A DNA stretch of 32,000 bases from Bdellovibrionales bacterium (GTDB lineage: Bacteria > Bdellovibrionota > UBA1018), in assembly GCA_018266355.1 (NCBI GenBank), contig JAFEAP010000005.1, positions 212,546 through 244,545 of the forward strand, written 5' to 3'. Positions 11,195-27,585 of this stretch are shown here, one piece after another. The notes beneath the pieces are model-generated. The model saw only the letters and a list, made by a program, of their open reading frames with translations. It searched no databases and was not told the DNA's origin. Positions within the stretch are counted from its first letter, which is position 1, and every line of letters starts with the position of its first letter. Position numbers and translations under genes: made by a program.

Positions 11195-12580
11195 TCACTT
11201 ACGCGTAGCCGCTTCGGTCGCCCGCACGATCGCGTGCATGAGGTTCACCGATTCTTCGAGCGTCCCCGTCTCGTCGACCCGCTGGCGGAGGAAGAGGTTG
11301 ATCCGGTCGATGGCGGCGATCGCCTGGTCGATCTTCGGGTTCGAACCCTTCGCGTAGGCCCCGATATTGATCAGGTCTTCGGCTTGGTTGTAGAGCGCCA
11401 TCCACTCCTTGATCTTGCCCGCGAAATCCTGCTGGGCGGGATCGGTGACCGAGCGGAAGACCCGCGAGGCGGAGGCGAGGATATCGATCGCCGGAAAATG
11501 GTTCTTCTGGGCGATCTTCCGCGAGAGCACGACGTGGCCGTCGAGGATCGACCGGGCGGAGTCGGCGATCGGATCGTCCATGTCGTCGCCTTCGACGAGG
11601 ACCGTGTAAAGACCAGTGATCGAGCCGCCGTTCACGCCGGTTCCGGCGCGCTCGAGGAGCTTCGGAAGCATCGAGAACACGGACGGCGGATACCCCTTCG
11701 TCGCCGGCGGCTCGCCGAGCGAGAGGCCGATTTCCCGCTGGGCCATGCAGAAACGGGTGACCGAATCCATGAGGAGAAGCACGTCCCGCGACTGGTCCCG
11801 GAAGAACTCGGCGACCGCGGCCGCGAAGATCGCTCCGCGCATCCGCAGGAGCGGACTCTTGTCCGAAGTCGCGACGATCACGACCGAACGTTTCAATCCT
11901 TCTTCGCCGAGGTCGCGCTCGATGAACTCGCGCACTTCCCGGCCCCGCTCGCCGATGAGCGCGATCACGTTCACGTCGGCCTTCGTTTGGCGAGCCATCA
12001 TCCCGAGGAGCACGGATTTCCCGACGCCCGATCCGGCCATGATGCCGACGCGCTGTCCGCGACCGATGGTGAGCAATCCGTTCAAAGCCCGGACGCCGAG
12101 GTCGAGCGGCTGCTCGATCACCGTGCGTTCGAGGGGATGGCTAGGAGATTCGTAGAGCGGCCGTAAACACGCGGTCTCGTCTTCGTCCCACGCGATCGGT
12201 CCCTTGCCGTCGATCGGTTCGCCGGTCGCGTCGAGGACGCGGCCGAGGAGCGCGTTTCCGAGCCGGATCTGCGCGGAATTCCGTTTCAAGACCACGATCG
12301 AATCCGTGCTGACTCCGCGGGCGTCGCCGAACGGCATGAGTACCACGCGTTTCTCGCGGAAACCGATGACTTCGGCGTCGACTCCCGGCATCGCGAGCGC
12401 GCTCTCGTCGAGGCGAAGGGGAACTCCCCCGCCCTCGCCGGTGAGGATGCGACAGACGCTGCCGACGGAAGCGCCCGGAAGGATCGCCTCGAAAACCATC
12501 CCGACCGATTTCACGACTTTACCCGCCACTCGGTAAGGCGTGTGGGTGGAGATTCGGTCGAGGAGCGCGTTCTCTATCAT
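11195..12580 (-). CDS. fliI: Flagellum-specific ATPase FliI
   Basis: 461 aa. Walker A MAGSGVGKSVLLGMM and Walker B VLLLMDSVTRF, with F1/T3SS-ATPase architecture. Its ATG overlaps the fliH stop (ATGA). Confidence 0.97.
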   Translation of the reverse strand: MIENALLDRISTHTPYRVAGKVVKSVGMVFEAILPGASVGSVCRILTGEGGGVPLRLDESALAMPGVDAEVIGFREKRVVLMPFGDARGVSTDSIVVLKRNSAQIRLGNALLGRVLDATGEPIDGKGPIAWDEDETACLRPLYESPSHPLERTVIEQPLDLGVRALNGLLTIGRGQRVGIMAGSGVGKSVLLGMMARQTKADVNVIALIGERGREVREFIERDLGEEGLKRSVVIVATSDKSPLLRMRGAIFAAAVAEFFRDQSRDVLLLMDSVTRFCMAQREIGLSLGEPPATKGYPPSVFSMLPKLLERAGTGVNGGSITGLYTVLVEGDDMDDPIADSARSILDGHVVLSRKIAQKNHFPAIDILASASRVFRSVTDPAQQDFAGKIKEWMALYNQAEDLINIGAYAKGSNPKIDQAIAAIDRINLFLRQRVDETGTLEESVNLMHAIVRATEAATRK

Positions 12581-13458
12581 GCCGATTCCGACTCTCCCGA
12601 ATCGGGGGCATCGGCCTCGATGGTGGCGGCCTCTTCGGCCGCGCGGGCGATCTGGGATTCATCGAGGGCGGCGAGCACCACTTCGTGGAGCGAACCGAGC
12701 TGGGTTTCGAGCGTAGCGTCGACGCGGCTCCAGTCCGTTTCGACGACGACGTCCGAGTCGCCGAGGAGCGAAGAAGACTCGACGGTCACGTTCTTCAATC
12801 CGGAGAATTTCTTCTCGAGTTCGGGCAGCATGCCGTAGAGGGCTTCCATCTGCGACGCGCTCGCGATCAGCTTCAGCTGCTCCTTCGCGCCGACTTTCTC
12901 CACGCAATTCCGGACGAGGCGGGTGATGTACTCCGAGTCGACGAGGATTTCCTTCTGGGCGACGGAACCCGCGATCCGGAACACGAGCTCGACGAGGAAA
13001 CGCTCGTTCGCCCGATGCACTTCGGCCTTCGTGCCTTCGAACGCGGCGATGAGCGCGTCGAGGCGTTCGAGTTTCTCGGCCGCGGAGGCCTCGAAGCTCG
13101 CCTTCGCTTCCGCCTTCCCGCGCGCGTAACCTTCCTCGTACCCCTCTTCGCGGCCCTCCTTCTCGGCGGCTTCGCGAAGCGAATCGACCTGCTGGCGAAC
13201 CCGCGCTTCGACGAGGTGGTTCGTCTCGTCGTCCGCGGAAATCAGGTCGCGCAGGACCGGATCGACTTGGAACCGGCGGTCCTTCCGACCGAGCTCGGCG
13301 AAAGGCTTCGTCGTGCGGTCCGGCCGCTTGCCCGCGAGGGTCGGCGTCCGGTAAGTCGCGGAGGCGTTCGGGCTCAGGTTCGTCATCTCGAACGGACGCA
13401 CCTCGAGGGTCGCTTCCTGATCGAGTTTGAAGATCTTCTTGTCCGTCTCTTGATCCAT
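12577..13458 (-). CDS. fliH: Flagellar assembly protein FliH
   Basis: 293 aa. Charged helical middle (EGYEEGYARGKAEAKASFEASAAEKLERL) and a FliH-type C-terminal domain (VTVESSSLLGDSDVVVETDWSRVDATLETQL). Lies between fliG and fliI. Confidence 0.8.
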   Translation of the reverse strand: MDQETDKKIFKLDQEATLEVRPFEMTNLSPNASATYRTPTLAGKRPDRTTKPFAELGRKDRRFQVDPVLRDLISADDETNHLVEARVRQQVDSLREAAEKEGREEGYEEGYARGKAEAKASFEASAAEKLERLDALIAAFEGTKAEVHRANERFLVELVFRIAGSVAQKEILVDSEYITRLVRNCVEKVGAKEQLKLIASASQMEALYGMLPELEKKFSGLKNVTVESSSLLGDSDVVVETDWSRVDATLETQLGSLHEVVLAALDESQIARAAEEAATIEADAPDSGESESA

Positions 13459-13478: not shown

Positions 13479-14495
13479 TTAAACGAGCGCGTCCCCGTCG
13501 CCGCCGCGGGCGATCATGATCTTGCCCTCGGACTCGAGGCGCTTCGCGACGTTGATGATTTCCTGCTGGGCCTTCTCGACGTCGGAGAGCTTGACCGGCC
13601 CCATGCTTTCGAGGTCTTCGCGCAGGAGGTCGGCCGCCCGTTTCGAGATGTTCTTGAAGATCTTGTCCTTGATCTCGTCGGGGGCCGTCTTGAGCGCCAT
13701 GACGAGCTTGTCGTTGGGCACTTCCTTGAGCAAGGTCTGCATGCCGCGGTCGTCGATGTAGATGATGTCTTCGAAGACGAACATGAGCTTGCGGATTTCT
13801 TCCGCGAGCTGCGGGTCCTTCTCCTCGACGCGCGCCATGATGTTCTGTTCGGACTGCTTGTCCATGACGTTGAGCATGTCGGCGATCGGTTGGATGCCGC
13901 CGAGCTGCTGGGTGTCGATGGAGCCGAGGGTCGCGAGTTCCTGCTTCAGTACTTCGTCGACCTGCGCGATGAGCGAAGGCGAGATGAAGTCGATGTTCGC
14001 GATACGCAGGACGACCTCGGTCTGGATGGCTTCCGGGAGACGCTTGATGACGTCGACCTTCTTGCCGCCGTCGAGGTGCGCGAGGATGAGCGCGATCGTC
14101 TGCGGGTGTTCGTTGATGAGGAAGTTCGCGAGCGTCCGCGAGTCGACGAGTTCGAGCGCCTCGAGGGTCCGGGACCCTTCGACGACCGAGAGCTGGCCGA
14201 GGACAGTCTTCGCGCGCTCTTCGCCGAGCGTCTGGAGCACGAAATCGCGGCCCATCGCGTGGCCGAAGATGATGTTGTTCTCTTCCGAGATCTCCGAGTA
14301 GAACTCCTCGAGCACGTCGCGCACGACGGTGATCGGCACTTTCGTGACCTGCCCCATGACGTTCACGAGGCGCTTCACGTCGTTGTCCTTCATCTTCTTG
14401 AAGATCTGCGAGGTGACCTGGTTGCCGAGCACGTTCAGCAGCACCGCCGCTTTTTCCACGCCCGACATCTGGTCGATGTTATCGAAGTTCGGCAT
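13479..14495 (-). CDS. fliG: Flagellar motor switch protein FliG
   Basis: 338 aa. SGVEKAAVLL start, MFVFEDI motif and a C-terminal charged-helix region (LREDLESMGPVKLSDVEKAQQEI). Confidence 0.95.
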   Translation of the reverse strand: MPNFDNIDQMSGVEKAAVLLNVLGNQVTSQIFKKMKDNDVKRLVNVMGQVTKVPITVVRDVLEEFYSEISEENNIIFGHAMGRDFVLQTLGEERAKTVLGQLSVVEGSRTLEALELVDSRTLANFLINEHPQTIALILAHLDGGKKVDVIKRLPEAIQTEVVLRIANIDFISPSLIAQVDEVLKQELATLGSIDTQQLGGIQPIADMLNVMDKQSEQNIMARVEEKDPQLAEEIRKLMFVFEDIIYIDDRGMQTLLKEVPNDKLVMALKTAPDEIKDKIFKNISKRAADLLREDLESMGPVKLSDVEKAQQEIINVAKRLESEGKIMIARGGDGDALV

Positions 14496-16192
14496 TAGGC
14501 GGTCTTCCCTTTATCCTTGGACTCTTCGGATTTCTTTTCCGGCGCGCCCGAAGCCGGGGCGACGAGCCAGTCCCGGAGGATGAGCGCGGCCTTCTGCGGG
14601 TTCGCGTCGACGAGGGTGACGACTTTTTCCTTCACCATCTCGCTCTCGATCTTCTCCGGATCGACCTGCTCCGGCATGCCCGGCACCGCGTCCTCGAGGC
14701 CCGGTAGCGCGGCCGAACCTTTCTGGAGCTTCTCGAGCTCCTCGAGCGTCTGCGGCAGGAAGGTCTCCACGCCGTCGGAGGTATTGTCGGTGATCCACTT
14801 GATGAACGGGCGGACGACCATGAAGAAGAAGAGGACGATCACGAGGCCCATGCCCGCGTAGAGGAGCAAGCTCTGGACGTAGGCCTTCTTGTCCCGCTCG
14901 GCCATGAGCGCTTCCGCGTCCGAGAAGTCCGTCTGCGAGAACTCCATGTTCTTCACTTCGAGCGAGTCGCCGCGCTTCTTGTCGAAGCCGACCGCGGAAG
15001 AGATGATCGCCTCGAATTCCTTCAGTTTCTCGGGCGCCCAGAGCTCGACCTTCGACTGGACGACGCCGTCCTTGTCCTTCGTCTTGATGATCTTACCGTC
15101 GACGACCACCGCGACGGAAAGGCGTTTGATCGATCCCGGCGCTTTCGTGGTGGTCTTCACCGTTTCCGGAACCGCGTAATTCGTGATGTCGCCGTCGACC
15201 TTCGTGTCGGTCGTCTTTTGGCCCGAAGGAGCCGTCTGCGCGAGCGGGGTGTTCGACTGGGCCCCGGCGACGCCGGAAGCCGTCGGACGGAAGCCCTGCA
15301 TCGACTGGTTATTGTGCTGCTGCGACCGGATGGCGGCGCCGTCCTGGTCGTAGGTGACCTGTTTCTCGGTCACGGCGTTGAAGTCGAGGTCGGCGGTCAC
15401 GCGCGCGACGACGTGACCGTCGCCGACGATCCGTCCGAGCATCTCCTCGATCGAGCGTTCCATTTCGCGCTCGACGCCTTGTTTGAAGTCGTTCTGCGAG
15501 GACGTGAGCTGGGAAATCGAATCGCCGTTGTTCTTCGAGAGCGTCTTGCCGAGGCTGTCGACGATCATGACGTCGTTCGTGTCGAGGCCTTCGACCGCGT
15601 GGGCGACGAGGGTGGCGATGCCCTGCACCTGCTTGTCGTTCAGCGTCGCGCCCGGCTCGAGGTCGACGATGACCGAGGCCGAGGATTTCTTCTGGTCTTC
15701 GACGAAGGTGGACTTCGCGGGCATCGCGAGGTGGACGCGGGAGCGGCGGACGCCGTGGATCGAGTTCACCGTGCGCATGAGCTCGCCTTCGAGGGCGCGC
15801 TTCTGGTTCACTTTCTGGACGAAGCTCGTCTGGCCGAGGTTCGTCTTATCGAAGACTTCGTAACCGACGACCGAGTTCTGCGGCATGCCCTGGATCGCGA
15901 GGTCCATCCGGAGCTGATCGATGTTCTCGGGGGAGACCGAGATGTTCTTCCCGCCGGCGTCGACCTTGAACGGGATGTTCTTTTCGCGGAGTACGCGGAC
16001 GATGTTCGCCGAGTCTTCCGGGGCCAGGTTCGTCATCAGCGGCATGTACGAGCGATTGCCGGCCCACATGAAGAGCCCGATGACGCCCGCGACGATGGCG
16101 ATCGCCGTGACTCCCATCGCGATCTTCTTCTGGGTGCTTTGGCCCGCCAGAAACTCGCTAAATTGCTTCGTGATTCGATTGAAAAAATCCAC
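14495..16192 (-). CDS. fliF: Flagellar MS-ring protein FliF
   Basis: 565 aa. N-terminal TM helix, a YscJ/FliF periplasmic region (NIVRVLREKNIPFKVDAGGKNISV...), a second TM helix near the C-terminus and a FliG-binding tail. The stop overlaps the fliG start (TAATG). Confidence 0.95.
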   Translation of the reverse strand: MDFFNRITKQFSEFLAGQSTQKKIAMGVTAIAIVAGVIGLFMWAGNRSYMPLMTNLAPEDSANIVRVLREKNIPFKVDAGGKNISVSPENIDQLRMDLAIQGMPQNSVVGYEVFDKTNLGQTSFVQKVNQKRALEGELMRTVNSIHGVRRSRVHLAMPAKSTFVEDQKKSSASVIVDLEPGATLNDKQVQGIATLVAHAVEGLDTNDVMIVDSLGKTLSKNNGDSISQLTSSQNDFKQGVEREMERSIEEMLGRIVGDGHVVARVTADLDFNAVTEKQVTYDQDGAAIRSQQHNNQSMQGFRPTASGVAGAQSNTPLAQTAPSGQKTTDTKVDGDITNYAVPETVKTTTKAPGSIKRLSVAVVVDGKIIKTKDKDGVVQSKVELWAPEKLKEFEAIISSAVGFDKKRGDSLEVKNMEFSQTDFSDAEALMAERDKKAYVQSLLLYAGMGLVIVLFFFMVVRPFIKWITDNTSDGVETFLPQTLEELEKLQKGSAALPGLEDAVPGMPEQVDPEKIESEMVKEKVVTLVDANPQKAALILRDWLVAPASGAPEKKSEESKDKGKTA

Positions 16193-16266: not shown

Positions 16267-16656
16267 CTAGACCTGCATGCGCATGATTTCTTTATAAGCG
16301 TCCAAGACCTTGTTCCGGACCTGCATCATCAGCTTCAAGGACGCGTCGGCGTTCTCGATCTGGAGCATGGTCTCGTGGATATTCTTCGTGCGCCCGGCGG
16401 CGAGTTCCTTGATCGACTTGTCCGCCGAGATTTGGGCTTCGTTCACCTTTTCGAGGGACTCGGTGAGCATCTGACCGAAGCCTTTCGCGGCTTCACCCGC
16501 GGAAGAAACGTCGGGCGTCGCCATCCCCTCGGCCTGCATCGCGCGAAGGGTCGGCGCTTCGGGCGCGGAGACGTTCTGCTTTCCGGCGCCGAGGAAGCCG
16601 TCGACGTTTCCGCTTTGGAGGGTGCCGGCCAGGTTTTCGATCGTTAAGTTACTCAT
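16267..16656 (-). CDS. fliE: Flagellar hook-basal body protein FliE
   Basis: 129 aa. C-terminal FliE region (FGQMLTESLEKVNEAQISADKSIKELAAGRTKNIHETMLQIENADASLKLMMQVRNKVLDAYKEIMRMQV). Confidence 0.85.
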   Translation of the reverse strand: MSNLTIENLAGTLQSGNVDGFLGAGKQNVSAPEAPTLRAMQAEGMATPDVSSAGEAAKGFGQMLTESLEKVNEAQISADKSIKELAAGRTKNIHETMLQIENADASLKLMMQVRNKVLDAYKEIMRMQV

Positions 16657-16747: not shown

Positions 16748-17185
16748 CTACTTCCCGATCTCGAGCGCTTTGGCGGCCATCGCCTTCGCGGCGTTCATCG
16801 CGGTCACGTTCGCTTCGTACGAGCGCTGGGCCGAGATCATGTTCGCCATCTCCTCGACCGTGTTCACGTTCGGCATGGCGACGTAACCTTCTTCGTTCGC
16901 GTCGGGGTGGTTCGGGTTATAGACCATCCGCGGCGGCGCGGTGTCTTCGTGGATGTCTTCCACGAGCACCCCTTGGACTTGCTGATCGAGCTGGTTGTTC
17001 AGGATCTCGCCGAAGCTTTCCTTGTCCGTCTCGGCGGTAAAGATCGGATCCTTACGCTTGTACGGTCCGCCTTCCTCGGTCCGCGTGGTCTCCGCGTTCG
17101 CGATGTTCGACGAGATCGTGTTCATCCGGCGGGTCTGCGCTTCGAGGCCGCTCGCGCTCACGCGCATGGAAGAAAAGAAATCCAT
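16748..17185 (-). CDS. flgC: Flagellar basal-body rod protein FlgC
   Basis: 145 aa. MRVSASGLEAQTRRMNTISSNIANAETT N-terminus and ISAQRSYEANVTAMNAAKAM C-terminus. Confidence 0.95.
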   Translation of the reverse strand: MDFFSSMRVSASGLEAQTRRMNTISSNIANAETTRTEEGGPYKRKDPIFTAETDKESFGEILNNQLDQQVQGVLVEDIHEDTAPPRMVYNPNHPDANEEGYVAMPNVNTVEEMANMISAQRSYEANVTAMNAAKAMAAKALEIGK

Positions 17186-17216: not shown

Positions 17217-17627
17217 TCAGCGGTTCCCTCCGCCTTCGGTGATCGAGTATTTCAGCATGCCGAGCTTTTTCTTCAGCATCTCGGCGGCCGCATCGTAAAG
17301 CAGCTGGTTTTCCGCCATTTTCGCCATCTCTTCGGAACGGTTTACGGTATTCCCGTCGAGCGACTCGACGCCGTTCATATCGTCCGCGATCGCCGGCGAG
17401 ACCGGGTCGGTCTCGCGGATCACGATGTGCTCGGGCGAATCGCCCTCGAGCGGAAGCTGGTCGTCGGCGCCGAGCGCCTGGCGAAGCGCGCCCTCGAACT
17501 CCACCTTCTTCGCGTGGTAGCCGGGCGTATCCGCGTTCGCGATGTTCGACGAGATCACGTTCTGGTTCACCAGACGCAAGTTCATCGTCGTGTTCAAGCC
17601 GTTGATGGTGGAGTCGAATCCGGACAT
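17217..17627 (-). CDS. flgB: Flagellar basal-body rod protein FlgB
   Basis: 136 aa from the internal ATG at 17627 (MSGFDSTINGL...QNVISSNIANADTPGYHAK), with a C-terminal EMAKMAENQLLYDAAAEML. The 24-codon upstream extension in the track ORF looks non-coding. Confidence 0.9.
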   Translation of the reverse strand: MSGFDSTINGLNTTMNLRLVNQNVISSNIANADTPGYHAKKVEFEGALRQALGADDQLPLEGDSPEHIVIRETDPVSPAIADDMNGVESLDGNTVNRSEEMAKMAENQLLYDAAAEMLKKKLGMLKYSITEGGGNR

Positions 17628-17707
17628 CCTGTCTTCCCTTCGACGAAACCAGAGGAAAAAATCTTCCGACTTCTTTCTTGCCGCTGACGTTTCTTCCACT
17701 CTGCATT

Positions 17708-17722
17708 ACAGGATGGGTGCCA
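17708..17722 (-). promoter_or_regulatory. Partial sigma-54-type promoter upstream of flgB (perfect -24 element, degenerate -12 element)
   Basis: The minus strand reads GCGTGGCACCCATCCTGTAATGCAG, i.e. TGGCAC-N5-CTGT versus the consensus TGGCAC-N5-TTGC. It lies ~80 nt upstream of the flgB ATG. Confidence 0.3.
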
Positions 17723-17773
17723 CGCCGCGCCTCCAATTAAATCATATTCTTACATGAACCGATCTTCATCGCA

Positions 17774-17813
17774 CTCGGCAGGAACTTCCTGGAGGGGAGA
17801 AATTCCTGCCGAG
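17774..17813. repeat. 40-bp dyad: perfect 11-bp inverted repeat with an 18-bp spacer (candidate enhancer/UAS or RNA hairpin)
   Basis: CTCGGCAGGAA (17774-17784) and TTCCTGCCGAG (17803-17813). It sits between the activator stop (17836) and the flgB -24 element (17722). No T-tract follows on the minus strand. Confidence 0.55.
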
Positions 17814-17835
17814 GCGAATCTTTCAAACGAGGACC

Positions 17836-18909
17836 TTAGACGTTAATGCCGAGCACGCGGTATTCCGCGAGCTTGTTCCGAAGCGTCCGAATGGAGATTC
17901 CGAGCGCCTTGGCGGTGTGGGTCCGGTTGCCTTGGTGATATTCGAGGGCTTGCAGGATGACCATCCGCTCGATGTCGTTGAGCGTTTCGCCCGGGGACCA
18001 CGGATTCTTGTCCGCGGCGCCGGCGCCGTTCCCCACGGCGAGGCTGAGCGTCTCGGTGCGCATGCGGCGCTCGATGACGACGTCCTTCGATTGGATCAGC
18101 ATGCCCTGCGCGGTGATGACGGCGCGCTCGATCACGTTCTCGAGTTCGCGGACGTTGCCCGGCCAGGTGTGCATGTCGAGGATCGCGAGCGCCTCGGACG
18201 AGATCCCCGAAAGCCCCTTGCCGTTCTTCTCGGCGTAGAACTTGATGAAGGACTCGGCGAGCACTTTCACGTCGCCCGTCCGGTCGCGGAGCGCCGGCAA
18301 GGTGAGATTCACGACGTTCAGACGATAGAAGAGGTCTTCGCGGAACGAACCTTCGCGGACGCAGTCGGAGAGGTTCCGGTTCGTGGTGGCGATGATCCGG
18401 ACGTCGATCGCCGTCGGCTTGCGGCCGCCGATGCGGTCGACCTGGCTTTCCTGGATCACGCGGAGAAGTTTCGCCTGGAGGCGGATATCCATCTCGGAGA
18501 TCTCGTCGAGAAGGATCGTGCCGCCGTGGGCGAGCTCGAATTTGCCGGCTTTCGCCGCGACCGCGCCGGTGAAGGCGCCGCGCTCGTAGCCGAAAAGTTC
18601 GGATTCGAGGAGGTTTTCCGGGATCGCCGCGCAGTTGATCGCGACGAACGGCTTGTTCGCGCGGTTCGACGAGGAATGGATCAAGCTCGCCATAAGCTCC
18701 TTACCCGTTCCGCTCTCGCCCTGGATCAGGACGGTGGCCTTGCTCTGGGCGACGGTGCGCGCGAGGTTCATGATATCGCCGAGCTGGCGATCCTTCGTCA
18801 CGATTCCCGCACTGCCTGCCGACGCGCTCGCCGACGAATTCGCCGGGAATCCGGCCCCTTGAAACTTCTCCATCGTCCCCTCCTTGGTCGTTTCCATCAC
18901 ATCCATCAT
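17836..18909 (-). CDS. Sigma-54-dependent transcriptional activator (bEBP) without an N-terminal sensory/receiver domain
   Basis: 357 aa from ATG 18909 (MMDVMETTKEG...). Walker [15 protein letters not shown] loop (ELFGYERGAFTGA), Walker [17 protein letters not shown] and a C-terminal Fis-type HTH (NRTHTAKALGISIRTLRNKL). Only ~37 aa precede the AAA+ core. The ATG overlaps the upstream gene's TGA (ATGA). The longer track ORF (to 19317) is Arg-rich and overlaps the TPR gene. Confidence 0.9.
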   Translation of the reverse strand: MMDVMETTKEGTMEKFQGAGFPANSSASASAGSAGIVTKDRQLGDIMNLARTVAQSKATVLIQGESGTGKELMASLIHSSSNRANKPFVAINCAAIPENLLESELFGYERGAFTGAVAAKAGKFELAHGGTILLDEISEMDIRLQAKLLRVIQESQVDRIGGRKPTAIDVRIIATTNRNLSDCVREGSFREDLFYRLNVVNLTLPALRDRTGDVKVLAESFIKFYAEKNGKGLSGISSEALAILDMHTWPGNVRELENVIERAVITAQGMLIQSKDVVIERRMRTETLSLAVGNGAGAADKNPWSPGETLNDIERMVILQALEYHQGNRTHTAKALGISIRTLRNKLAEYRVLGINV

Positions 18910-21695
18910 AGTGAATTGCCCTCCATGGCATTCGTGCCCGCGAGTTTCTTGCGGGCGAGCTCTTTCCAAAAATCGTCTTTTTCGCTGCCGGCGGCGCGCT
19001 TGAGCAGCTCTCCGACCTTCGCTTCGTCGCCGCCGATCTTCTCGAGCGAGAGCGCGTACTGGTAGATCGCGCGGTTTCCGCCGAGCCCCGCGTTCACGGC
19101 TCGCCCGTAGGCATCGGCCGCTTCTCCGTATTTCCCGAGCTTCGCCGCGAGTTCGCCCTCGGCGAGGATCCACGCTTCTTTCCCGGCGATCGGCTTCAAG
19201 CCCACGCCTTCGGCTTTCGCGCGCGCGCCCGGAGCCGGGTTCGAGTTCTGGAGTTTCCGGAACGCTTCGATCGCCGAGCGCGTATTGCCGCCGTCGGCTT
19301 GGAGGTTCGCGATCCACTGATCGAGCGAGATGCGCTCGACGGAATCTTCCTTCGTCAGCTTCGCGAGCAGCATCGACGCCTTCGAGGCGTGGAGGAGCGC
19401 GGTCGCGTAGCTTTTCGAACGTTCGGCGATCAAGCCGAGGATGATCTCGCGCTGGTAAGCGAACGGGGATTCGTCGGCGACCTTCGCGAGCTTCGCCTTC
19501 ACGTCGTCGACGCTACCCTTCGAGATCCAAAGCGCCTTCGCGTCGGTGAACGCGCGCTCCGAGACCTTCAGCCGGGTATCGAGGTTCGATTCGTCGGACG
19601 CGACCGCGCGGCCGGAGGAGAGGCCGAGCGCCTTCGCTTCCGCGTCGTAGCGTTTCGCGATCGTGCCGGCCGTCCGCCCGAGCCCGAGCTCGGCGGCGAC
19701 GCGCGAGAGGCGGAGGAGATAGTCGGGGTCCGAAAGCGCGAGGCGCTCCGGCGTGACGTCTTCCGGCAGGTTTTCGGTGAGATTCACCCGCGCGCCGTAC
19801 TTATCGTAAAACTCGACCGCCTCGAACTTCTTGCCGGCGTCGAGGAGCGCGAGGACCTGTTTCCGGAAAAGTTTCCGCTCCATGTCTTGGAGCCACGCGT
19901 AAGCGCCGCTCTTGCGCGAGACTTCTTCCTTTTCCCGGATCGCGGCGTCGAGCGCGGCGACCGGATCGTCGAGGAGGATCATCGACCGCACGCGGATCAT
20001 CGACCGGAACTCGCCGAAGCGCTCCATGCGGATCTCGCCTTTGCCGTCGAACTTCTCGGTCTCGTTCTTGAAGAAATCGGCCGCCGTGCGCGCATCGAAC
20101 CCGCCGTGGTCGTCGCACGGAACGAGGCGCATCCGCGCGATGATCGCGCCGGGGCTGAAGGGGTAACGGTTGATCGTTTCGAGGAAGCCCGCGCGGGCCT
20201 TCGCGATCGAGTCCGGGCCCGGGCGACGGCCTTCGATCTCGGCGAGGCGGATAAGCGCGCGCCATCCCGCGGGATGCCCGGGGAAGCGGACGGCGAAATC
20301 CTTGAATTGGGCTTCGGCGCGATCGAGCTGGCCAAGCCAGTAAAGCGCCTCGCCGCGGTTGATCTGCGCGGAAGCGAGCGCGGCGGATTCCGCCGGGAAC
20401 TTCTGCGACGCGCGGAAATACGCGGCGAGGGCTCGGTCGTACTGTTCGCGAAAGAGGTAGGCGTCGCCGATGCGGAGGCTCGCCATCGCGCGCTCGGAAG
20501 TCTCCGGCGCGTTCGCCTCGACCCACTCGTATTCGCGGACGGCGCGGTCGGTCTGCTTGATCTTGTAGAGGCTTTCGGCCGCGATCAGGCGCCACGCCCA
20601 GACGTTCCGGTGTTTCGGATATTCGGTCGCGATCCAGAGGTAACGCTCGATGGTTTGGAGCTCGTTCCCCTCTTTCCGTTTCTCGCCCGCGAGGTAGAGC
20701 GCGGAAGCGAGCGCGGCCGGGGTGCCCGGATTCTTCTCCCGGAGCACGTCGAAGGCGGCGGAGGCCTCGTCCTTCAGCCCGAGCCGGAGGAGCGCGTTCG
20801 CCTTCAGGAATTCCATGTCGACGCGGTGGATGCTGTCGGGCCGTTCCTTGATCAGGAAATCGACGGTCCGCGCGGCGAGCGCGAAATCCCGCTTCTCGTA
20901 GAGTTCGAGCGCGAGCTTCACGTATTTCGCGTCAGGCGCGCCCGGTTTCGCGGGCAAGAACGGATATCCCTCGTCCGGAAGGCCCGTGGGCAGGTAATCG
21001 GCGAGGTTCGGCGTCTCGTGTTCGGGCATGAACTCGAGGAAGAGGTCGACGCCTTCGCGGAGCGGTTCCTTGCAGAACCGGGCGACGTCGGATTCGATGG
21101 CGAGCGCCTGCTCGGCGGCGATCCGGCGGTCGCGGCGTTTCTTCGCCTCGGCGGCGGCGCGGTCGATCGACGCCTGTTTCGCCTTCGCCGCCGTTTCCTT
21201 CTTCACCTGGGCGATCGTCACGCCGCCCTTCGGCCAGAAATCGACGACGAACCGCGCGGGCTCCTTTTCGCGGTAAGTGAAACGCTCCATCTTCGGGTTC
21301 GCGATCGCGTTCTCGCCGGTGGGGAAATTCCATTTTCCGTCGATACGCACGCCGGCGTCCGTTTCGGCCGCCTTCACTTCGGCGATCCGCGGATCGCGAA
21401 GCGCCTCGAGATCGGCCTCGCCGAGGTAGAGGTCCGCGAAGGTCACGCCGCGCAGGAGGAGCGAAAACCCGCCGGACGTCTCTTTCCATTCGGTTTCGAC
21501 CGACGGATCGATCGAGACGGCGAGGCGCGAGTGGGTCTTGAACGTTTCGATTTGGACGGCGGAAGACGGACGAGCGAAGACGCTCGGAGCGGCCGTCAAA
21601 ATGCCGGCGAACGCGACGACGAGCGCGCGAGCGGTCGTCTTGAGACGACGCTTTTCCCCGGGAGACGAATCGTAAGCTTCCTGCTTTTTCGTCAT
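18906..21695 (-). CDS. Large secreted TPR-repeat protein with an N-terminal beta-rich (tentatively AMIN-like) domain
   Basis: 929 aa from ATG 21695 (GGCAGGAA RBS). Signal peptide MTKKQ...ARALVVAFAGILTAAPSVFA/RP, then VQIETFKTHSRLAVSIDPS...FSLLLRGVTF...ARFVVDFWPKGG, then many TPR-like helical repeats (e.g. ALELYEKRDFALAARTVDFLI, EALYWLGQLDRAEAQFKDF, YQYALSLEKIGGDEAKVGELLKRA). The GTG at 21749 is rejected because it lies ~8 nt from the predicted sigma-54 transcription start. Confidence 0.85.
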   Translation of the reverse strand: MTKKQEAYDSSPGEKRRLKTTARALVVAFAGILTAAPSVFARPSSAVQIETFKTHSRLAVSIDPSVETEWKETSGGFSLLLRGVTFADLYLGEADLEALRDPRIAEVKAAETDAGVRIDGKWNFPTGENAIANPKMERFTYREKEPARFVVDFWPKGGVTIAQVKKETAAKAKQASIDRAAAEAKKRRDRRIAAEQALAIESDVARFCKEPLREGVDLFLEFMPEHETPNLADYLPTGLPDEGYPFLPAKPGAPDAKYVKLALELYEKRDFALAARTVDFLIKERPDSIHRVDMEFLKANALLRLGLKDEASAAFDVLREKNPGTPAALASALYLAGEKRKEGNELQTIERYLWIATEYPKHRNVWAWRLIAAESLYKIKQTDRAVREYEWVEANAPETSERAMASLRIGDAYLFREQYDRALAAYFRASQKFPAESAALASAQINRGEALYWLGQLDRAEAQFKDFAVRFPGHPAGWRALIRLAEIEGRRPGPDSIAKARAGFLETINRYPFSPGAIIARMRLVPCDDHGGFDARTAADFFKNETEKFDGKGEIRMERFGEFRSMIRVRSMILLDDPVAALDAAIREKEEVSRKSGAYAWLQDMERKLFRKQVLALLDAGKKFEAVEFYDKYGARVNLTENLPEDVTPERLALSDPDYLLRLSRVAAELGLGRTAGTIAKRYDAEAKALGLSSGRAVASDESNLDTRLKVSERAFTDAKALWISKGSVDDVKAKLAKVADESPFAYQREIILGLIAERSKSYATALLHASKASMLLAKLTKEDSVERISLDQWIANLQADGGNTRSAIEAFRKLQNSNPAPGARAKAEGVGLKPIAGKEAWILAEGELAAKLGKYGEAADAYGRAVNAGLGGNRAIYQYALSLEKIGGDEAKVGELLKRAAGSEKDDFWKELARKKLAGTNAMEGNSL

Positions 21696-21767
21696 TTCCT
21701 GCCTTGCGAGGACCCCGGGCTCATCATGAATCCGGAGTGGTCCTCCCACTCTATCCGGATAGATAAA

Positions 21768-21782
21768 GCAACCCAGGTGCCA
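21768..21782 (-). promoter_or_regulatory. Near-consensus sigma-54 (-24/-12) promoter for the TPR-protein/bEBP operon
   Basis: The minus strand reads GATTGGCACCTGGGTTGCTTT, i.e. TGGCAC (21782-21777), N5, TTGC (21771-21768), with exact spacing and both GG and GC elements. It lies ~73 nt upstream of ATG 21695. Confidence 0.75.
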
Positions 21783-22052
21783 ATCCGGCGCTCGTTGCCG
21801 ATTCGTTTTCGCCGACCGGCAGAAGGTTCCGATCCGTAACCGCTTTCGGGCGAAAATATTTTCCTAGACGCGACGAGTCACCTTAATTTCCTCTCATGTG
21901 ATTTTGTCGCGGTTCTTGACTAAACCGTCAGAAAGTACGACGTGCTCCGTCAAACTCAAAACAGTCCCTCCATCCGCGCACGGACCTTCTCAGGGCACTT
22001 GCAGTCGGGCGACCAAACGTTTCTAATCAAAGGACAAGGAAACTCACCCCTC

Positions 22053-22628
22053 TTGATCCGCATCCGGTCCCTCGCATTTTCCTTCGTCACGCTTTTGACG
22101 CTCGCCTCTTGTTCGACTCTCGTCGGCAATGTGAAACCCGTCGACCAGAAGTCGACCGATTACGGCGTGATCGACCTCTCGAAAGAGAATCCGAAGGTGT
22201 GGAAGCGCCTCGACGATTCGGCGCTTCGCCCGAAGGACGCCCAAATCGGATCGAACAAGCAGGCGTTTTCGTCCGAGATCACCGACCTCGCCTTCCAGTC
22301 GAAACGCACCTCGGCGATCATTTCGCTGAATTCGTCCTGCCGCGAAGGCCGCGAATCGATCGGAGACCTCGCGCCGTACATGAAGGAACTCCTCCTCGGC
22401 ATGCGCGAGGTGACCGAGCGCGAAGAGACCACGCGCCGAATCGACGGCATCGAAGCGCTTCAGACGATCGTCGCCGGCACCCTGGCGGGCGAGCACACGA
22501 AGATCCACGCCATCGTCCTTTCGAAAGAAGGGTGCGTCTACGACCTGATGTACATCTCCCGACCCGAGCGCTATCCGACGCACGAAGGCGACTTCAATCG
22601 CTTTGTTTCCTCGCTAAAGCTGCGTTAA
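22053..22628 (+). CDS. Lipoprotein of unknown function, first gene of the Mla-like operon
   Basis: A TTG start at 22053 gives a 19-residue lipoprotein signal MIRIRSLAFSFVTLLTLAS/C (lipobox LASC). The track ORF starts at GTG 21942, but that would add 37 non-signal residues. The stop is 10 nt before mlaE. Confidence 0.7.
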   Translation: MIRIRSLAFSFVTLLTLASCSTLVGNVKPVDQKSTDYGVIDLSKENPKVWKRLDDSALRPKDAQIGSNKQAFSSEITDLAFQSKRTSAIISLNSSCREGRESIGDLAPYMKELLLGMREVTEREETTRRIDGIEALQTIVAGTLAGEHTKIHAIVLSKEGCVYDLMYISRPERYPTHEGDFNRFVSSLKLR

Positions 22629-22638
22629 CCTTCAGGAA

Positions 22639-23421
22639 GTGAGTACGAACGGCTCCGGCTCGGGACCGGCCAATTCCCTGATCGAATTCTCCGGCGGGTT
22701 CGCCCACCTCGTGCGCGACGTCGCCCGGGAGATCGTGCGTCCGCCGCTCTACTTCCGCTTGATCCTCGACCAGGTCTTCCACATCGGCGTGAACTCGTTC
22801 CTCCTCGTCGCCGTCACCGGCCTCGCCTCGGGCTCGGTCATGGCGCTCCAATTCGGGTTCGGTCTCGCGAAGTTCGGCGGCACGCTTTACGTGCCGAAGA
22901 TCACGTCGCTCTCGATCTTGCGCGAAATGGGTCCGGTCTTCACTTCGCTGCTCGTCGCCGGCCGGATCGGCTCGGGCATCGCGGCCGAAGTGTCTTCGAT
23001 GAAGGTGACCCAGCAGATCGACGCGATCCGCGCGCTCGGCACGAGTCCGGTGAAGCGGATCGTGGTACCGCGCCTCCTCGCCTGCATGATCGCGCTGCCG
23101 CTGCTCACGCTCTTCGCCGACTACATCGCGCTCTGGGGCGCGATGATCATCTGCAAGGTCGAGCTCGGCATCGGCCAGAGCTTCTTCATCGCGAAGACCC
23201 TCGAGACGGTGAAATCCGCCGACCTTTTCTCGGGGATGCTGAAGACGGTCGTCTTCGCTTTCTTCATCGCGATCACGGCGTGCTGGAAAGGATTCAATAC
23301 CGAAGGCGGAACGGAAGGCGTCGGCAACTCGACGACCTGGGTCGTCGTCACGTCGAGCATCTTCATCCTCGTCAGCGACTTCTTCCTGACGAAACTTTTC
23401 ATCATCACCCTTTACACATGA
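22639..23421 (+). CDS. mlaE: ABC transporter permease, MlaE family
   Basis: 260 aa, multi-TM. Typical MlaE stretches (VFHIGVNSFLLVAVTGLASGSVMALQ, REMGPVFTSLLVAGRIGSGIAAEVSSMKVTQQIDAIRALG). The stop overlaps the mlaF ATG. Confidence 0.9.
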   Translation: MSTNGSGSGPANSLIEFSGGFAHLVRDVAREIVRPPLYFRLILDQVFHIGVNSFLLVAVTGLASGSVMALQFGFGLAKFGGTLYVPKITSLSILREMGPVFTSLLVAGRIGSGIAAEVSSMKVTQQIDAIRALGTSPVKRIVVPRLLACMIALPLLTLFADYIALWGAMIICKVELGIGQSFFIAKTLETVKSADLFSGMLKTVVFAFFIAITACWKGFNTEGGTEGVGNSTTWVVVTSSIFILVSDFFLTKLFIITLYT

Positions 23422-24173
23422 GCGCGCACGAATCCCCCGAAATCGTCCTCGAGATGCGCGACGTTCACAAAGCCTTCGGCGCGAAGGTCGTCCACCGCGG
23501 CGTGAGCTTCTCGCTCCGGAAAGGAGAGATGCTCGGACTCTTCGGCGGATCGGGGACCGGGAAGAGCGTGCTCATCCGCTCGATCATCGGGCTCGAGCAG
23601 CCCGATCGCGGCGAAGTGCTCTTCGAGGGCCGGAACCTCCTCACCCTCACCGAGCGCCAGCTCTACAAAGTCCGCACGAAGATCGGGTTCGTCTTCCAAA
23701 ACGGCGCGCTTTTCGACTCGCTCACGGTCGAGGAGAATCTCGCCTACCCGCTTCGCGCCCACACGACGCTTACCGACGAGGAGATCCAAGCCCGCATCGA
23801 AAAGATGCTCGAGCTGATCGACATGAAAGGCACGAACGATCTCCTACCGAACGAGCTTTCCGGCGGCATGCAGAAACGCGCGGGCATGGCCCGCGCGACG
23901 ATCCTCGAACCGTCGGTCATCCTCTTCGACGAACCGACGGCCGGCCTCGATCCGGTGAACACCCGCCGCCTCACCGGAAACATCACGAAGCTGAAGGACC
24001 GAGGCATCACCGGCATCTTCGTCACCCACGACATCCCTGCCGCCTTCGAGATCTGCGACCGCGTCGCGATCCTCCGGGAAGGCGTGATCCACGTCATCGA
24101 CACCGTCGAGAACATCAAGCGGTCGAAGGACCCCTTCGTCCAGTCCTTCGTCCAAGGAGCCTATTACACATGA
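23418..24173 (+). CDS. mlaF: ABC transporter ATP-binding protein, MlaF family
   Basis: 251 aa from ATG 23418 (ATGA overlap with mlaE). Walker A GGSGTGKS, signature LSGGMQKR, Walker B ILFDEPTAGLD. Confidence 0.9.
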   Translation: MSAHESPEIVLEMRDVHKAFGAKVVHRGVSFSLRKGEMLGLFGGSGTGKSVLIRSIIGLEQPDRGEVLFEGRNLLTLTERQLYKVRTKIGFVFQNGALFDSLTVEENLAYPLRAHTTLTDEEIQARIEKMLELIDMKGTNDLLPNELSGGMQKRAGMARATILEPSVILFDEPTAGLDPVNTRRLTGNITKLKDRGITGIFVTHDIPAAFEICDRVAILREGVIHVIDTVENIKRSKDPFVQSFVQGAYYT

Positions 24174-24943
24174 AAGACACCCGTTCGAACGACTTCAAGG
24201 TCGGCATCTTCGTCACGCTCGGCGTGGCCTTCTCGATGGTCACGATCCTCGTCCTCGGCGGCGCGGAGAACGCCTTCACCCGGAAGGTGAACTACAATAC
24301 CCATTTCCCGGCCGCGAACGGGCTGGTCACCGGCTCGAAAGTCGTCCTCTCGGGGATTCCCGTCGGGACCGTCCACGAAGTCGAATACGAGCCGGCGACG
24401 AAACTCGTCCGCATCGAGATCTCCGTCCAGCGGAAGTACGCCGAGTTCATCACCGAAGGCTCGACCGTCGAGATCAACACCCAGGGCGTCCTGGGCGACA
24501 AATACCTCGGCATCAATCCCGGCGGCGTCGGCAAGGAGCTCGCCGAAGGCGCGGACATCCCGAACCTGCCCTCGAGCGACGTCTCGGCTTTCCTTTCGAA
24601 GACCGACGCGGTCATGGTGAACGTGAACGCGACCGTCGAGAGCTTGAACCGGCTACTGAAATCGCTCGAGCGCGGGAACCGCCTCGATCAGATCATCGAA
24701 AACCTCTCCTCGACGACGAAGGGCCTATCCGAATTCGCGAACGGGAAGAACATGGCGAAGTCTTCGAAGTCCCTCGCCGACATCCTCGATAAGGTGAATA
24801 ACGGCGCCGGCACCCTCGGCGCGCTCGTGAACGACCCCGGCCTCTACGAGGACGCCCGCGCCCTCGTCGGCGGCGCGAATCGGAACCGGATCATCCGGAA
24901 CCTCGTGCGCGAGTCCGTGAAAGACGGCACGACGAAGCAGTAG
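24170..24943 (+). CDS. mlaD: MCE-domain substrate-binding protein, MlaD family
   Basis: 257 aa. N-terminal TM helix (FKVGIFVTLGVAFSMVTILVLGG), an MCE fold stretch (GLVTGSKVVLSGIPVGTVHEVEY...VEINTQGVLGDKYLGINPG) and a helical C-terminus. ATGA overlap with mlaF. Confidence 0.85.
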   Translation: MKDTRSNDFKVGIFVTLGVAFSMVTILVLGGAENAFTRKVNYNTHFPAANGLVTGSKVVLSGIPVGTVHEVEYEPATKLVRIEISVQRKYAEFITEGSTVEINTQGVLGDKYLGINPGGVGKELAEGADIPNLPSSDVSAFLSKTDAVMVNVNATVESLNRLLKSLERGNRLDQIIENLSSTTKGLSEFANGKNMAKSSKSLADILDKVNNGAGTLGALVNDPGLYEDARALVGGANRNRIIRNLVRESVKDGTTKQ

Positions 24944-24976: not shown

Positions 24977-25873
24977 TTAACCGCCGGATCCGGCCTTCTT
25001 AACCGAGGGCTTCGTACGTACGGGCTTCGTGGGCACGACCCGCTTCGGCGGCGGACCCTGTCCCTCCGTCTTCGCTTGTTCATCGTCGCAAGCACCCGAC
25101 ATAAGGCCCGCGTCGCAGATCGGCTCCACGACGATCGGCTTCATCCGGCTGGTCTCGTCGATTTTCTCGGCGCCGGGTATTTTTCCCGACTTCTTCGCGT
25201 TCCAAGCGAGGTTTCCGTGCTCGCAGTGGTTATCGAAGAAGAAATCCATTTCGCCCGAGCTCGAACCGACCTTGCAGAGGTCGATGCCGTTATCGGTATT
25301 CACGAGGAAACCGGGCCGCATGGAATCGCAGTCCGTCGAACCGGATTTTTGGGTCCAGCAAACCTTCGGCAACGGCTCGGCGTCCTTACATCCGGCATCG
25401 TTATGATAACGGCCGACCACCCATCCGGCGACGGAGCAAACGCTCGGAGCCCCGCCCGAGGAGTTAGGATCCGTCTGGTAATCGCTATAGACCGAAGTGA
25501 CCGGCACGATTTGACCCTTCGAGCAGGTGTCCTGGCCGTTCGATTGGGGCTCGATGAAGAAGCAGTCGGACTGCGCGGGAGGGTCGACGCGCGCCGATTT
25601 TTTCGGCCACTGCGGGGCCCTAGCCGAGGGAATCTTCCCCGTATTTTCTCCCGCCGCTACGTTTCCGTTCTCGCCCCGGACGCAATCTCGCCGCGAACGA
25701 TAAAAGGCGAGTTCGAAATCCTCGCCGACCTTGCATTGTTCGATTCCGTCGACGATCGCGAGACTGCCCCGGTGACATCCTTTCGTCGCCTGCACGAAAC
25801 AAGGGGCGGCGATCGCCGAACCCGCACCGAACGCGACCATCACCACCAAAACTCGAACCGAACGCATCATCAT
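24977..25873 (-). CDS. Secreted cysteine-rich modular protein of unknown function
   Basis: 298 aa from ATG 25873 (GGAG RBS). Signal peptide MMMRSVRVLVVMVAFGAGSAIA/APC. The mature part has 14 Cys, in three 4-Cys modules plus a terminal pair, and ends in a basic Pro/Lys tail PPPKRVVPTKPVRTKPSVKK. The longer track start (25954) would place a strong hairpin inside the coding sequence. Confidence 0.7.
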   Translation of the reverse strand: MMMRSVRVLVVMVAFGAGSAIAAPCFVQATKGCHRGSLAIVDGIEQCKVGEDFELAFYRSRRDCVRGENGNVAAGENTGKIPSARAPQWPKKSARVDPPAQSDCFFIEPQSNGQDTCSKGQIVPVTSVYSDYQTDPNSSGGAPSVCSVAGWVVGRYHNDAGCKDAEPLPKVCWTQKSGSTDCDSMRPGFLVNTDNGIDLCKVGSSSGEMDFFFDNHCEHGNLAWNAKKSGKIPGAEKIDETSRMKPIVVEPICDAGLMSGACDDEQAKTEGQGPPPKRVVPTKPVRTKPSVKKAGSGG

Positions 25874-25908: not shown

Positions 25909-25943
25909 GGCCCCGGGTCTCGCATCCTACGAAACCCGGGGCC
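25909..25943 (-). terminator. GC-rich hairpin with a T-rich trailer (terminator-like or leader structure) between bEBP-2 and the Cys-rich gene
   Basis: Perfect 10-bp stem GGCCCCGGGT (25909-25918) / ACCCGGGGCC (25934-25943) with a 15-nt loop. The minus-strand trailer is TTTCCGTTTCTGCC. Confidence 0.4.
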
Positions 25944-26046: not shown

Positions 26047-27111
<1,065 letters not shown>

Positions 27112-27585
27112 CAATGCTCCCTCCTAACCCGTCCGTGAGTTTTGTCAGATAATGCCTTAGCGGACATTCTCGGAAAGGAGGTGCACTCGGAGGCCGAAGC
27201 GATGGCAGTCGTTCAGGCTTAGGAGCGCTGCTTGAAACTTCCTTGACGTCGTCGTCGAAGAAATCCCCGACTTCCGGTCGGTTCCGGCCCGGGTTTAAAC
27301 CCGAACCTTCAGGCAGCTTTCAGCGATCTTTCCGTGTTCGCCAGAGTCAACTCATCGTCGACTCGAGAATTAGGCTAAGCAGTTTCTGCCGGGTCGTCAA
27401 AATTTTTTTATAAGATCGTCAAAGATTTTTCGAAAACCTTACGATTTCAGGGGCTTGCGGCCGAACTTTTTTCACTCGTTTCGGAAGAAAAAATCACCGA
27501 ATCGTCGCTCCGCATCATCGCTCGAAATCCGCACCTAGAGCGGCTCGGCAAACTCCTTCTCGACCGACTGCGAAATCGCGCGGAA

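Follow-up and report, generated by a model that had tools for sequence, protein, structure and literature searches.

How is a flagellar basal-body operon switched on when the activator encoded at its head carries no sensory domain? This question is raised by a 32-kb stretch of DNA (32,000 nucleotides (nt), as a whole referred to here as the window) from the Bdellovibrionales bacterium assembly GCA_018266355.1 (contig JAFEAP010000005.1, positions 212,546-244,545), in which a sigma-54 promoter precedes the gene of a large tetratricopeptide repeat (TPR) protein, followed by the gene of a minimal bacterial enhancer-binding protein (bEBP), here termed bEBP1, and then by flgB and further flagellar genes. 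To our knowledge, the control of flagellar genes in Bdellovibrio-like bacteria has hardly been studied, and motility matters for the predatory members of this group. The answer favored here, with a probability of roughly 0.55, is that a PflA-like gene and a translationally coupled, intrinsically active bEBP1 form one unit that feeds back through the sequence motif GGAAnnTTCTGCCG, while a second minimal activator encoded nearby, bEBP2, gives the first input. The elements at the center of this reading are the following.

21817-21830, minus strand: candidate enhancer half-site GGAACCTTCTGCCG, beginning 48 nt upstream of the TGGCAC element of the promoter
21767-21782, minus strand: canonical sigma-54 promoter TGGCACCTGGGTTGCT, with -24 GG and -12 GC, an exact match to TGGCAC-N5-TTGCT
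18906-21695, minus strand: TPR gene, 929 amino acids, from the ATG at 21695 to the TGA at 18908-18906
18906-18924, minus strand: gene junction, with a GGAGGG Shine-Dalgarno sequence (18924-18919) in the last TPR codons, then ATGA (18909-18906)
17836-18909, minus strand: bEBP1 gene, 357 amino acids, an AAA+ core plus a Fis-type helix-turn-helix (HTH)

The conservation of these elements was followed in a scan with one genome per species, which yielded 48 further loci with the TPR gene (L001-L048), labelled, apart from a few evidently mislabelled bins, as Bdellovibrionota-type metagenome-assembled genomes or as the isolates FG-1/FG-2. Since all features of the locus recur in relatives whose TPR proteins are 32-82% identical, they go beyond chance. 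This holds first for the promoter. A preliminary description of the stretch had noted a near-consensus -24/-12 element as an 18-nt string, which spans 21783-21766; within it, TGGCACCTGGGTTGCT agrees with the canonical pattern TGGCAC-N5-TTGCW at all 11 specified positions, with exact spacing of GG and GC, and it is the sole site in the window with at most one mismatch to this pattern, where shuffled sequences lead one to expect 0.18. A site matching at least 10 of the 11 positions, the threshold applied to orthologs, precedes the TPR gene in 44 of 46 loci. Judged by sequence and recurrence, the sigma-54 promoter of the TPR gene is real and conserved. The predicted transcription start lies near 21756, with the ATG at 21695 about 60 nt further downstream; an in-frame GTG at 21749 would leave a leader of about 7 nt from the predicted start, and close homologs of 929-930 amino acids align over 100% of the 929-residue query.

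Upstream of this promoter lies a candidate binding site for an activator. The 14-nt motif GGAAnnTTCTGCCG occurs there as an exact single copy (21830-21817), and the only other exact copies in the window form an inverted pair before flgB (17811-17776). At up to one mismatch, six matches are found in the window against 0.94 expected, and at up to two mismatches the motif is present in 26 of 43 TPR upstream regions of relatives, where 0.068 would be expected per 260 bp; it mostly precedes TGGCAC by 36-48 nt. A motif of this type is thus common to both regions that had earlier been singled out for binding tests (21783-21940 and 17723-17835), and its placement upstream of the TPR and putative flgB promoters fits feedback. 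Sigma-70-like promoters were also looked for, near the two regulatory regions and before bEBP2, and none was found.

The first gene of the operon encodes, as the preliminary description had it, a 929-residue TPR protein with a signal peptide; the open reading frame (ORF) from 21695 to 18906 is confirmed, and the N-terminus shows a basic region, a hydrophobic region and a VFA motif, together a signal peptide of about residues 1-41. Pfam matches are restricted to TPR families (TPR_6, TPR_14, TPR_16 and TPR_21), and the 56 long homologs (602-1021 amino acids, mostly about 900-990; 34-80% identity) all come from metagenomes of Bdellovibrionota or Oligoflexia. Conservation is lacking over the N-terminal 30-45 residues, which makes a cytoplasmic tail unlikely. 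An AlphaFold (AF2) model built on 24 family members reached a mean predicted local distance difference test score (pLDDT) of 84.5 and divides the protein as follows.

Residues ~1-41: disordered N-terminus with the signal peptide
Residues 47-155: beta-sandwich
Residues 161-202: helix of 40 residues
Residues 256-919: TPR superhelix

When the full model was compared with the Protein Data Bank (PDB) by Foldseek, the top match was 9hmf_K (chain K of 9HMF), a periplasmic scaffold of the C. jejuni motor, at E = 2.3e-11. The alignment covers the full length of this 773-residue chain, generic eukaryotic TPR scaffolds rank next, and the chain length, which is that of mature PflA, suggests that 9hmf_K is PflA. 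Residues 42-216 were also modelled on their own (pLDDT 90); for this model E. coli AmiC (4bin) ranked first (E = 1.7e-3), with a root-mean-square deviation of 3.5 Å over 120 columns, and the aligned part of AmiC is what we take to be its AMIN domain. Sub-threshold NCBIfam matches to YbgF and BamD were rejected as an identity, as they cover only residues 414-530. Together with the position of the gene, which directly precedes the bEBP gene and flgB in all loci, the modelled fold indicates that the TPR protein is most likely a PflA-like periplasmic motor scaffold, that is, a structural flagellar protein. The domain and structure searches thereby uphold the bEBP as it had been described, while the generic envelope protein gives way to a PflA-like one, and the structural role makes the place of the TPR gene in a flagellar operon an ordinary one.

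This assignment meets existing expectations. Feng et al. describe PflA as an AMIN-like sandwich followed by a loop and 17 TPR repeats, and MotK as an AMIN domain plus TPR; they propose that PflA-like TPR genes, in single copy and close to flagellar genes, occur widely (PMC11870540, PMC13023049). A B. bacteriovorus flagellar operon had been reported by Chaban et al. to encode a PflA-like TPR protein with a signal peptide and about 1000 amino acids; in their speculation, this protein makes up the inner-membrane-proximal ring visible in cryo-electron tomography (PMC5758724; repeated in PMC12222027). The species-level genome scan returned no locus of the B. bacteriovorus type strain, and WP_011165745.1 of B. 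bacteriovorus could not be confirmed as an ortholog. Within the window, an ORF between fliJ and fliK (8106-8918, minus strand) has a weak match, below the cut-off (E = 3e-7), to the spirochaete collar protein FlbB, which belongs to the FlgY/MotE E-ring group, partners of PflA-like proteins; such a FlbB/FlgY-like ORF fits a PflA-FlgY pairing. No PflB-like partner is visible in the window.

The second gene encodes an activator reduced to its working parts. In Pfam, bEBP1 matches Sigma54_activat (PF00158) at residues 36-202 (E = 2.6e-71), AAA_lid_14 at 208-278 and HTH_8 at 310-350 (E = 2.4e-16), and no domain precedes residue 36. Its GAFTGA motif and both Walker motifs (A and B) are intact and, including DEISEM, invariant in the family alignment, so that no motif required for sigma-54 activation is missing, and the HTH retains 73% mean column identity across the family. 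Homology of the relatives' proteins to bEBP1 begins at residue 36, where the AAA+ core starts; most orthologs have 3 residues before the core, and a variable N-terminal extension of 13-41 residues is limited to the sub-clade of the window. Gene calls in close relatives start at the overlap with the TPR gene. An alternative start at ATG 18873, with AAGGAGGGG at 18885-18877, would give 345 amino acids and 23 residues before the core; with either start, only unconserved residues (35 or 23) precede the core, and the protein is sensor-less. The preliminary description had likewise reported a 357-residue bEBP lacking receiver, GAF and PAS domains, and had named a longer ortholog with an upstream sensory domain as a finding that would overturn this view: none was found among the relatives, and the best 120 homologs (310-383 amino acids) carry no receiver, GAF, PAS or other sensory Pfam domain. 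The best NCBIfam match is FlbD (NF050807), at 442.5 bits against a cut-off of 750 and over FlbD positions 114-445 only; bEBP1 was not accepted as an FlbD equivalog, as it falls below the cut-off and leaves the receiver-like domain unaligned, nor as a FleT-type bEBP, as its HTH_8 is highly conserved. By its predicted domains, bEBP1 has the sensor-less architecture of the PspF, HrpR/S and LafK type. The earlier impression that such a flagellar regulator had not been described does not hold, as LafK and FleT are known (PMC3162934).

The two genes meet in an arrangement that is itself conserved. The ATG of bEBP1 (18909-18907) overlaps the TGA of the TPR gene (18908-18906), an overlap noted from the start that recurs as ATGA in 33 of 44 loci; the others, about one quarter, have overlaps of 1, 8 or 11 nt or gaps of 12-87 nt. 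A Shine-Dalgarno sequence of the AAGGAGG type lies 5-10 nt before the bEBP start in nearly all loci, and in most of them it is made by the codons GCCAAGGAGGGC, which encode the conserved TPR C-terminus Ala-Lys-Glu-Gly (AKEG). Because GCCAAGGAGGGC doubles as the ribosome-binding site of the next gene, the conservation of this peptide may reflect a constraint at the level of RNA. The copy in the window (18919-18930, minus strand) has diverged to AMEG, with a second AAGGAGGGG 36 nt downstream, a configuration that suggests a local duplication or insertion.

The order TPR gene, bEBP gene, flgB and flgC is kept in every locus that reaches far enough (44 entries for the bEBP gene, 40 for flgB), which bears out the expectation that the TPR and bEBP genes are co-conserved with flgB. 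Three distant members, at 35-42% TPR-protein identity, show the TPR gene, a 4-nt overlap and a bEBP of 323-327 amino acids, followed by flgB, flgC, fliE, fliF, fliG, fliH and fliI, with fliJ in two of the three. In the window, the flagellar genes that follow bEBP1 are these.

17217-17627, minus strand: flgB (NCBIfam/Pfam), starting 208 nt after the bEBP1 stop, in line with the distance of about 200 nt noted before
16748-17185, minus strand: flgC (NCBIfam/Pfam)
16267-16656, minus strand: fliE (NCBIfam/Pfam)
14495-16192, minus strand: fliF (ORF list and gene order with Pfam labels in relatives, as for the next three genes)
13479-14495, minus strand: fliG
12577-13458, minus strand: fliH
11195-12580, minus strand: fliI

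Beyond fliI come a plus-strand insertion and then fliJ, the FlbB-like ORF, fliK, flgD, a gene of the TIGR02530 family, flgE, fliL and fliM. The inserted ORF of about 462 amino acids (9564-10952, plus strand) has a signal-peptide-like start, MRTRNSFSVRAALAIGLL, and no Pfam match; in the relatives L002 and L003, fliJ directly follows fliI. Simple scans of fliJ-fliM found no sigma-54-like or sigma-28-like pattern.

The gap between bEBP1 and flgB holds two further elements.

17774-17813, strand not assigned: inverted repeat CTCGGCAGGAATTTC-N10-GAAGTTCCTGCCGAG, 23 nt after the bEBP1 stop, with two enhancer-like motif copies, the inverted GGAAnnTTCTGCCG pair
17707-17722, minus strand: degenerate sigma-54-like promoter TGGCACCCATCCTGTA, about 80 nt upstream of flgB, with a perfect -24 element

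A relaxed -24/-12 pattern has only two matches in the window, the canonical promoter and TGGCACCCATCCTGTA. No canonical sigma-54 promoter lies between the bEBP gene and flgB. A pattern with a variant -12 element, GGCAY-N5-YTG(A/T)A, was searched over 1.3 Mb of locus sequence; it occurs in this gap in 15 of 40 loci, and these are 15 of only 26 matches overall. In L023, L045, L046 and L048, only 13-20 nt separate the bEBP stop from the flgB start, with neither promoter nor repeat. In those loci flgB must thus be co-transcribed, and the internal flgB promoter and the repeat are lineage-specific gains or losses. No intrinsic terminator was found after bEBP1 in the window.

A second activator gene lies about 4 kb upstream on the same strand, past a divergent mla operon.

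26047-27111, minus strand: bEBP2 gene, 354 amino acids, 8 residues before the AAA+ core, GAFTGA intact, HTH_8

The protein bEBP2 is 40% identical to bEBP1. Its orthologs in 19 relatives (63-91% identity) are encoded on the strand of the operon, nearly all with a start codon 8 residues before the core and with a variable C-terminal tail (352-405 amino acids in total). No sigma-54 promoter was found upstream of bEBP2. The presence of a conserved sensor-less bEBP2 without such a promoter makes it doubtful that bEBP1 stands at the top of the hook-basal-body hierarchy, where the preliminary description had placed it. After bEBP2, a terminator-like hairpin (25909-25943; 16 bp, GC-rich, with a T-rich tail) probably ends its transcript.

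Several observations concern the surroundings of this second gene. An ORF of about 298 amino acids after bEBP2 (24977-25873, minus strand) is cysteine-rich, with a signal-peptide-like start and no family match. The 470 nt upstream of bEBP2 (27115-27585) have a G+C fraction of 0.51 against about 0.61 and contain two TTGACG repeats 22 nt apart as well as a CGGCAGAA half-site; neither a sigma-70 nor a sigma-54 consensus promoter could be called there. The divergent operon (21942-24943, plus strand) consists of a 228-residue ORF without a family match followed by the genes of MlaE, MlaF and MlaD, and a divergent mlaD-F-E operon with a small ORF adjoins the TPR gene also in relatives of 35-42% identity.

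The available data are compatible with a model in which sigma-54 RNA polymerase would bind the -24/-12 promoter at 21782-21767 and transcribe first the gene of a presumably Sec-exported, PflA-like protein of the spoke or scaffold class around the flagellar motor. Translation of the second gene would begin on the stop codon of the first, from a Shine-Dalgarno sequence within its conserved last codons, and yield the minimal AAA+-HTH activator bEBP1. The genes flgBC-fliEFGHI come next and are at least partly co-transcribed with this pair; in some relatives only a short gap precedes flgB. Lacking a sensory domain, bEBP1 would be intrinsically active, with its activity set by the amount made through sigma-54-dependent transcription and coupled translation; it may additionally be held by a partner of the PspA, HrpV, FliX or FleN type. 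It would bind GGAAnnTTCTGCCG at the one site upstream of its own promoter and at the inverted pair before the flgB promoter with the weak -12 element, resulting in positive feedback and raised expression of flgB-fliI. Self-activation by the bEBP is plausible on these sequence grounds. The first round of transcription would need another input, for which bEBP2 is the likeliest candidate.

A number of points weigh against this model. The PflA assignment draws on fold and context and does not amount to proven PflA orthology: full-length TM-scores are low (0.23-0.26), and a profile of 24 family members searched against PDB chains returned only generic TPR, CpoB and YbgF entries and no PflA. The strong Shine-Dalgarno sequence could allow translation of bEBP1 independently of the TPR gene, which makes the coupling putative. 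At both promoters the link to a bEBP is putative, and the binder of the motif could be bEBP1 or bEBP2. The motif is missing, at up to two mismatches, in 17 of 43 TPR upstream regions, and the variant flgB promoter in 25 of 40 loci, which makes these elements clade-specific and not universal. In the window, the -12 element before flgB reads TGT instead of TGC, so that the near-invariant GC is lost and the promoter may not function. The inner arms of the repeat covary among relatives, which would also suit a hairpin in the RNA, with the role of an attenuator or 3' stabilizer. Finally, there is no rpoN gene within the 32-kb window.

The alternative that best withstands the evidence is a strict two-tier cascade without autoregulation, in which bEBP2 would bind GGAAnnTTCTGCCG and fire the TPR promoter, and bEBP1 would act on later promoters elsewhere, in the manner of FlrA-to-FlrC or FleQ-to-FleT. 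The properties of bEBP2 described above speak for it: the protein is sensor-less, its gene is conserved beside the operon and on the strand of the operon in 19 relatives, and no sigma-54 promoter precedes it. There is also a precedent in Rhodobacter sphaeroides, where FleQ alone activates the fleT promoter first (PMC10084136, PMC7277832). However, bEBP2 was not found within 7 kb in about 12 loci that still have the promoter, and the motif lies also directly downstream of the bEBP1 gene, so that a cascade of this kind, although possible, is rather unlikely.

A different reading concerns the repeat after bEBP1, which could be an enhancer, an RNA hairpin or both. As an RNA element, it would split the TPR-bEBP1 and flgB transcripts, by partial termination or by stabilizing a 3' end. 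Its arms can form a stem of 14-15 bp, the 226-nt stretch that includes it (17620-17845) has an RNA fold z-score of -3.9, and in relatives the inner stem covaries with pairing kept. Yet no U tract follows the stem, either in the window or in the similar repeats that about 10 relatives carry after the bEBP gene with conserved GGCAG/CTGCC ends; the outer CGGCAG/CTGCCG matches the motif copy before the TPR promoter, which stands alone and forms no hairpin; and the loci with gaps of 13-20 nt lack any repeat. A search against Rfam matched no family anywhere in the window. We regard a pure RNA function as unlikely.

The feedback model can also be taken further, to a circuit free of sensors altogether: bEBP2 would prime it, bEBP1 would be made only after ribosomes have completed the 2.8-kb scaffold gene, both promoters would receive feedback, possibly through a mixed ring of the two activators, and control would lie in dosage, delay and coupling instead of a ligand or phosphorylation signal. 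This extension is speculative and is put forward tentatively. The mixed ring is also conceivable as the main principle, with bEBP1 and bEBP2 assembling into one AAA+ hetero-oligomer active at flagellar promoters, after the example of HrpR/HrpS or FleQ/FleT. That one neighborhood holds two conserved sensor-less paralogs, both with GAFTGA and an HTH, would suit such an assembly, and both bEBP hetero-oligomers described so far involve proteins without N-terminal domains (PMC10084136). On the other hand, both proteins keep their HTH, unlike FleT, and could each act alone, and the HrpR/HrpS genes are adjacent, whereas those of bEBP1 and bEBP2 are split by the unrelated mla operon; a hetero-oligomer is therefore quite improbable. 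Least probable is the earlier proposal of a TPR-bEBP signaling pair in fixed stoichiometry, with the envelope protein informing the activator: the adjacency and stop/start overlap conserved across loci would accommodate it, but such overlaps are commonplace in compact operons, about a quarter of the loci have short gaps instead, the TPR N-terminus is unconserved, and the signal peptide and periplasmic AMIN-TPR architecture place the two proteins in different compartments, where they cannot touch.

The feedback model with bEBP2 as first input thus remains the preferred reading, and it turns the locus into testable wiring that consists of a conserved sigma-54 promoter, two minimal activators, a shared candidate enhancer motif and a conserved junction. 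If sensor-free feedback holds true, this would be a further flagellar hierarchy without two-component input, beside LafK and FleQ/FleT; if not, the locus is an ordinary compact flagellar operon. The findings also extend, by a well-supported lineage, the view that PflA-like AMIN-TPR scaffolds occur widely beyond Campylobacterota and indicate that a PflA-like scaffold gene can head a core basal-body operon. In the literature searched, we did not find a description of this combination in Bdellovibrionota, of a junction with its Shine-Dalgarno sequence in conserved codons, of a minimal bEBP pair or of a flgB promoter with a weak -12 element.

How the locus relates to known systems can be followed component by component. 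The PflA group, with PflA of Campylobacter and Helicobacter and, more widely, MotK of C. sphaeroides, CC_2058 and the B. bacteriovorus protein WP_011165745.1, shares the signal peptide, the AMIN-like sandwich, the linker and the TPR superhelix as well as the location among flagellar genes (PMC11870540, PMC13023049, PMC5758724). In contrast to the protein described here, PflA has about 790 amino acids instead of 929, lacks the 40-residue helix after the AMIN domain and shows no detectable sequence similarity, and it has not been reported as the product of the first gene of a flgB operon that overlaps a regulator gene.

The presence of an activator gene in such an operon has parallels. In Caulobacter crescentus, flbD is encoded inside an early flagellar operon. 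Likewise, fleT lies in the early operon fleT-fliEFGHIJ (PMC7277832). FlbD, the best NCBIfam match of bEBP1, has binding sites close to flagellar promoters of the early and middle classes and answers in trans to its partner FliX rather than to phosphorylation (PMC3930126); it differs from bEBP1 in its receiver-like N-terminal domain, outside the aligned region, and no fliX was seen in the window. The FleQ/FleT pair of Rhodobacter (Cereibacter) sphaeroides resembles the present case in having two flagellar bEBPs, of which the one without an N-terminal domain heads a sigma-54 operon with fliEFGHIJ (PMC7277832, PMC10084136). FleT is a sensor-less flagellar bEBP that also lacks the HTH (PMC3162934), the domain that is so well conserved in bEBP1.

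Among flagellar regulators, the architecture of bEBP1 is shared by LafK of Vibrio parahaemolyticus and Aeromonas, an AAA+-HTH sigma-54 activator of lateral flagella without a signal-recognition domain (PMC3162934), which is not necessarily at the top of its own hierarchy (PMC3930126). LafK comes from another phylum, is likened to bEBP1 by architecture, and has no reported overlap with a scaffold gene or nearby sensor-less paralog. PspF and HrpR/HrpS, too, consist of AAA+ plus HTH and have no further domain at the N-terminus; they possess intrinsic activity, on which PspA or HrpV acts as a repressor in trans (PMC10084136). They differ in their regulons, membrane stress and type III secretion, and no PspA- or HrpV-like gene is adjacent to bEBP1. 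Taken together, each component of the locus has a known counterpart.

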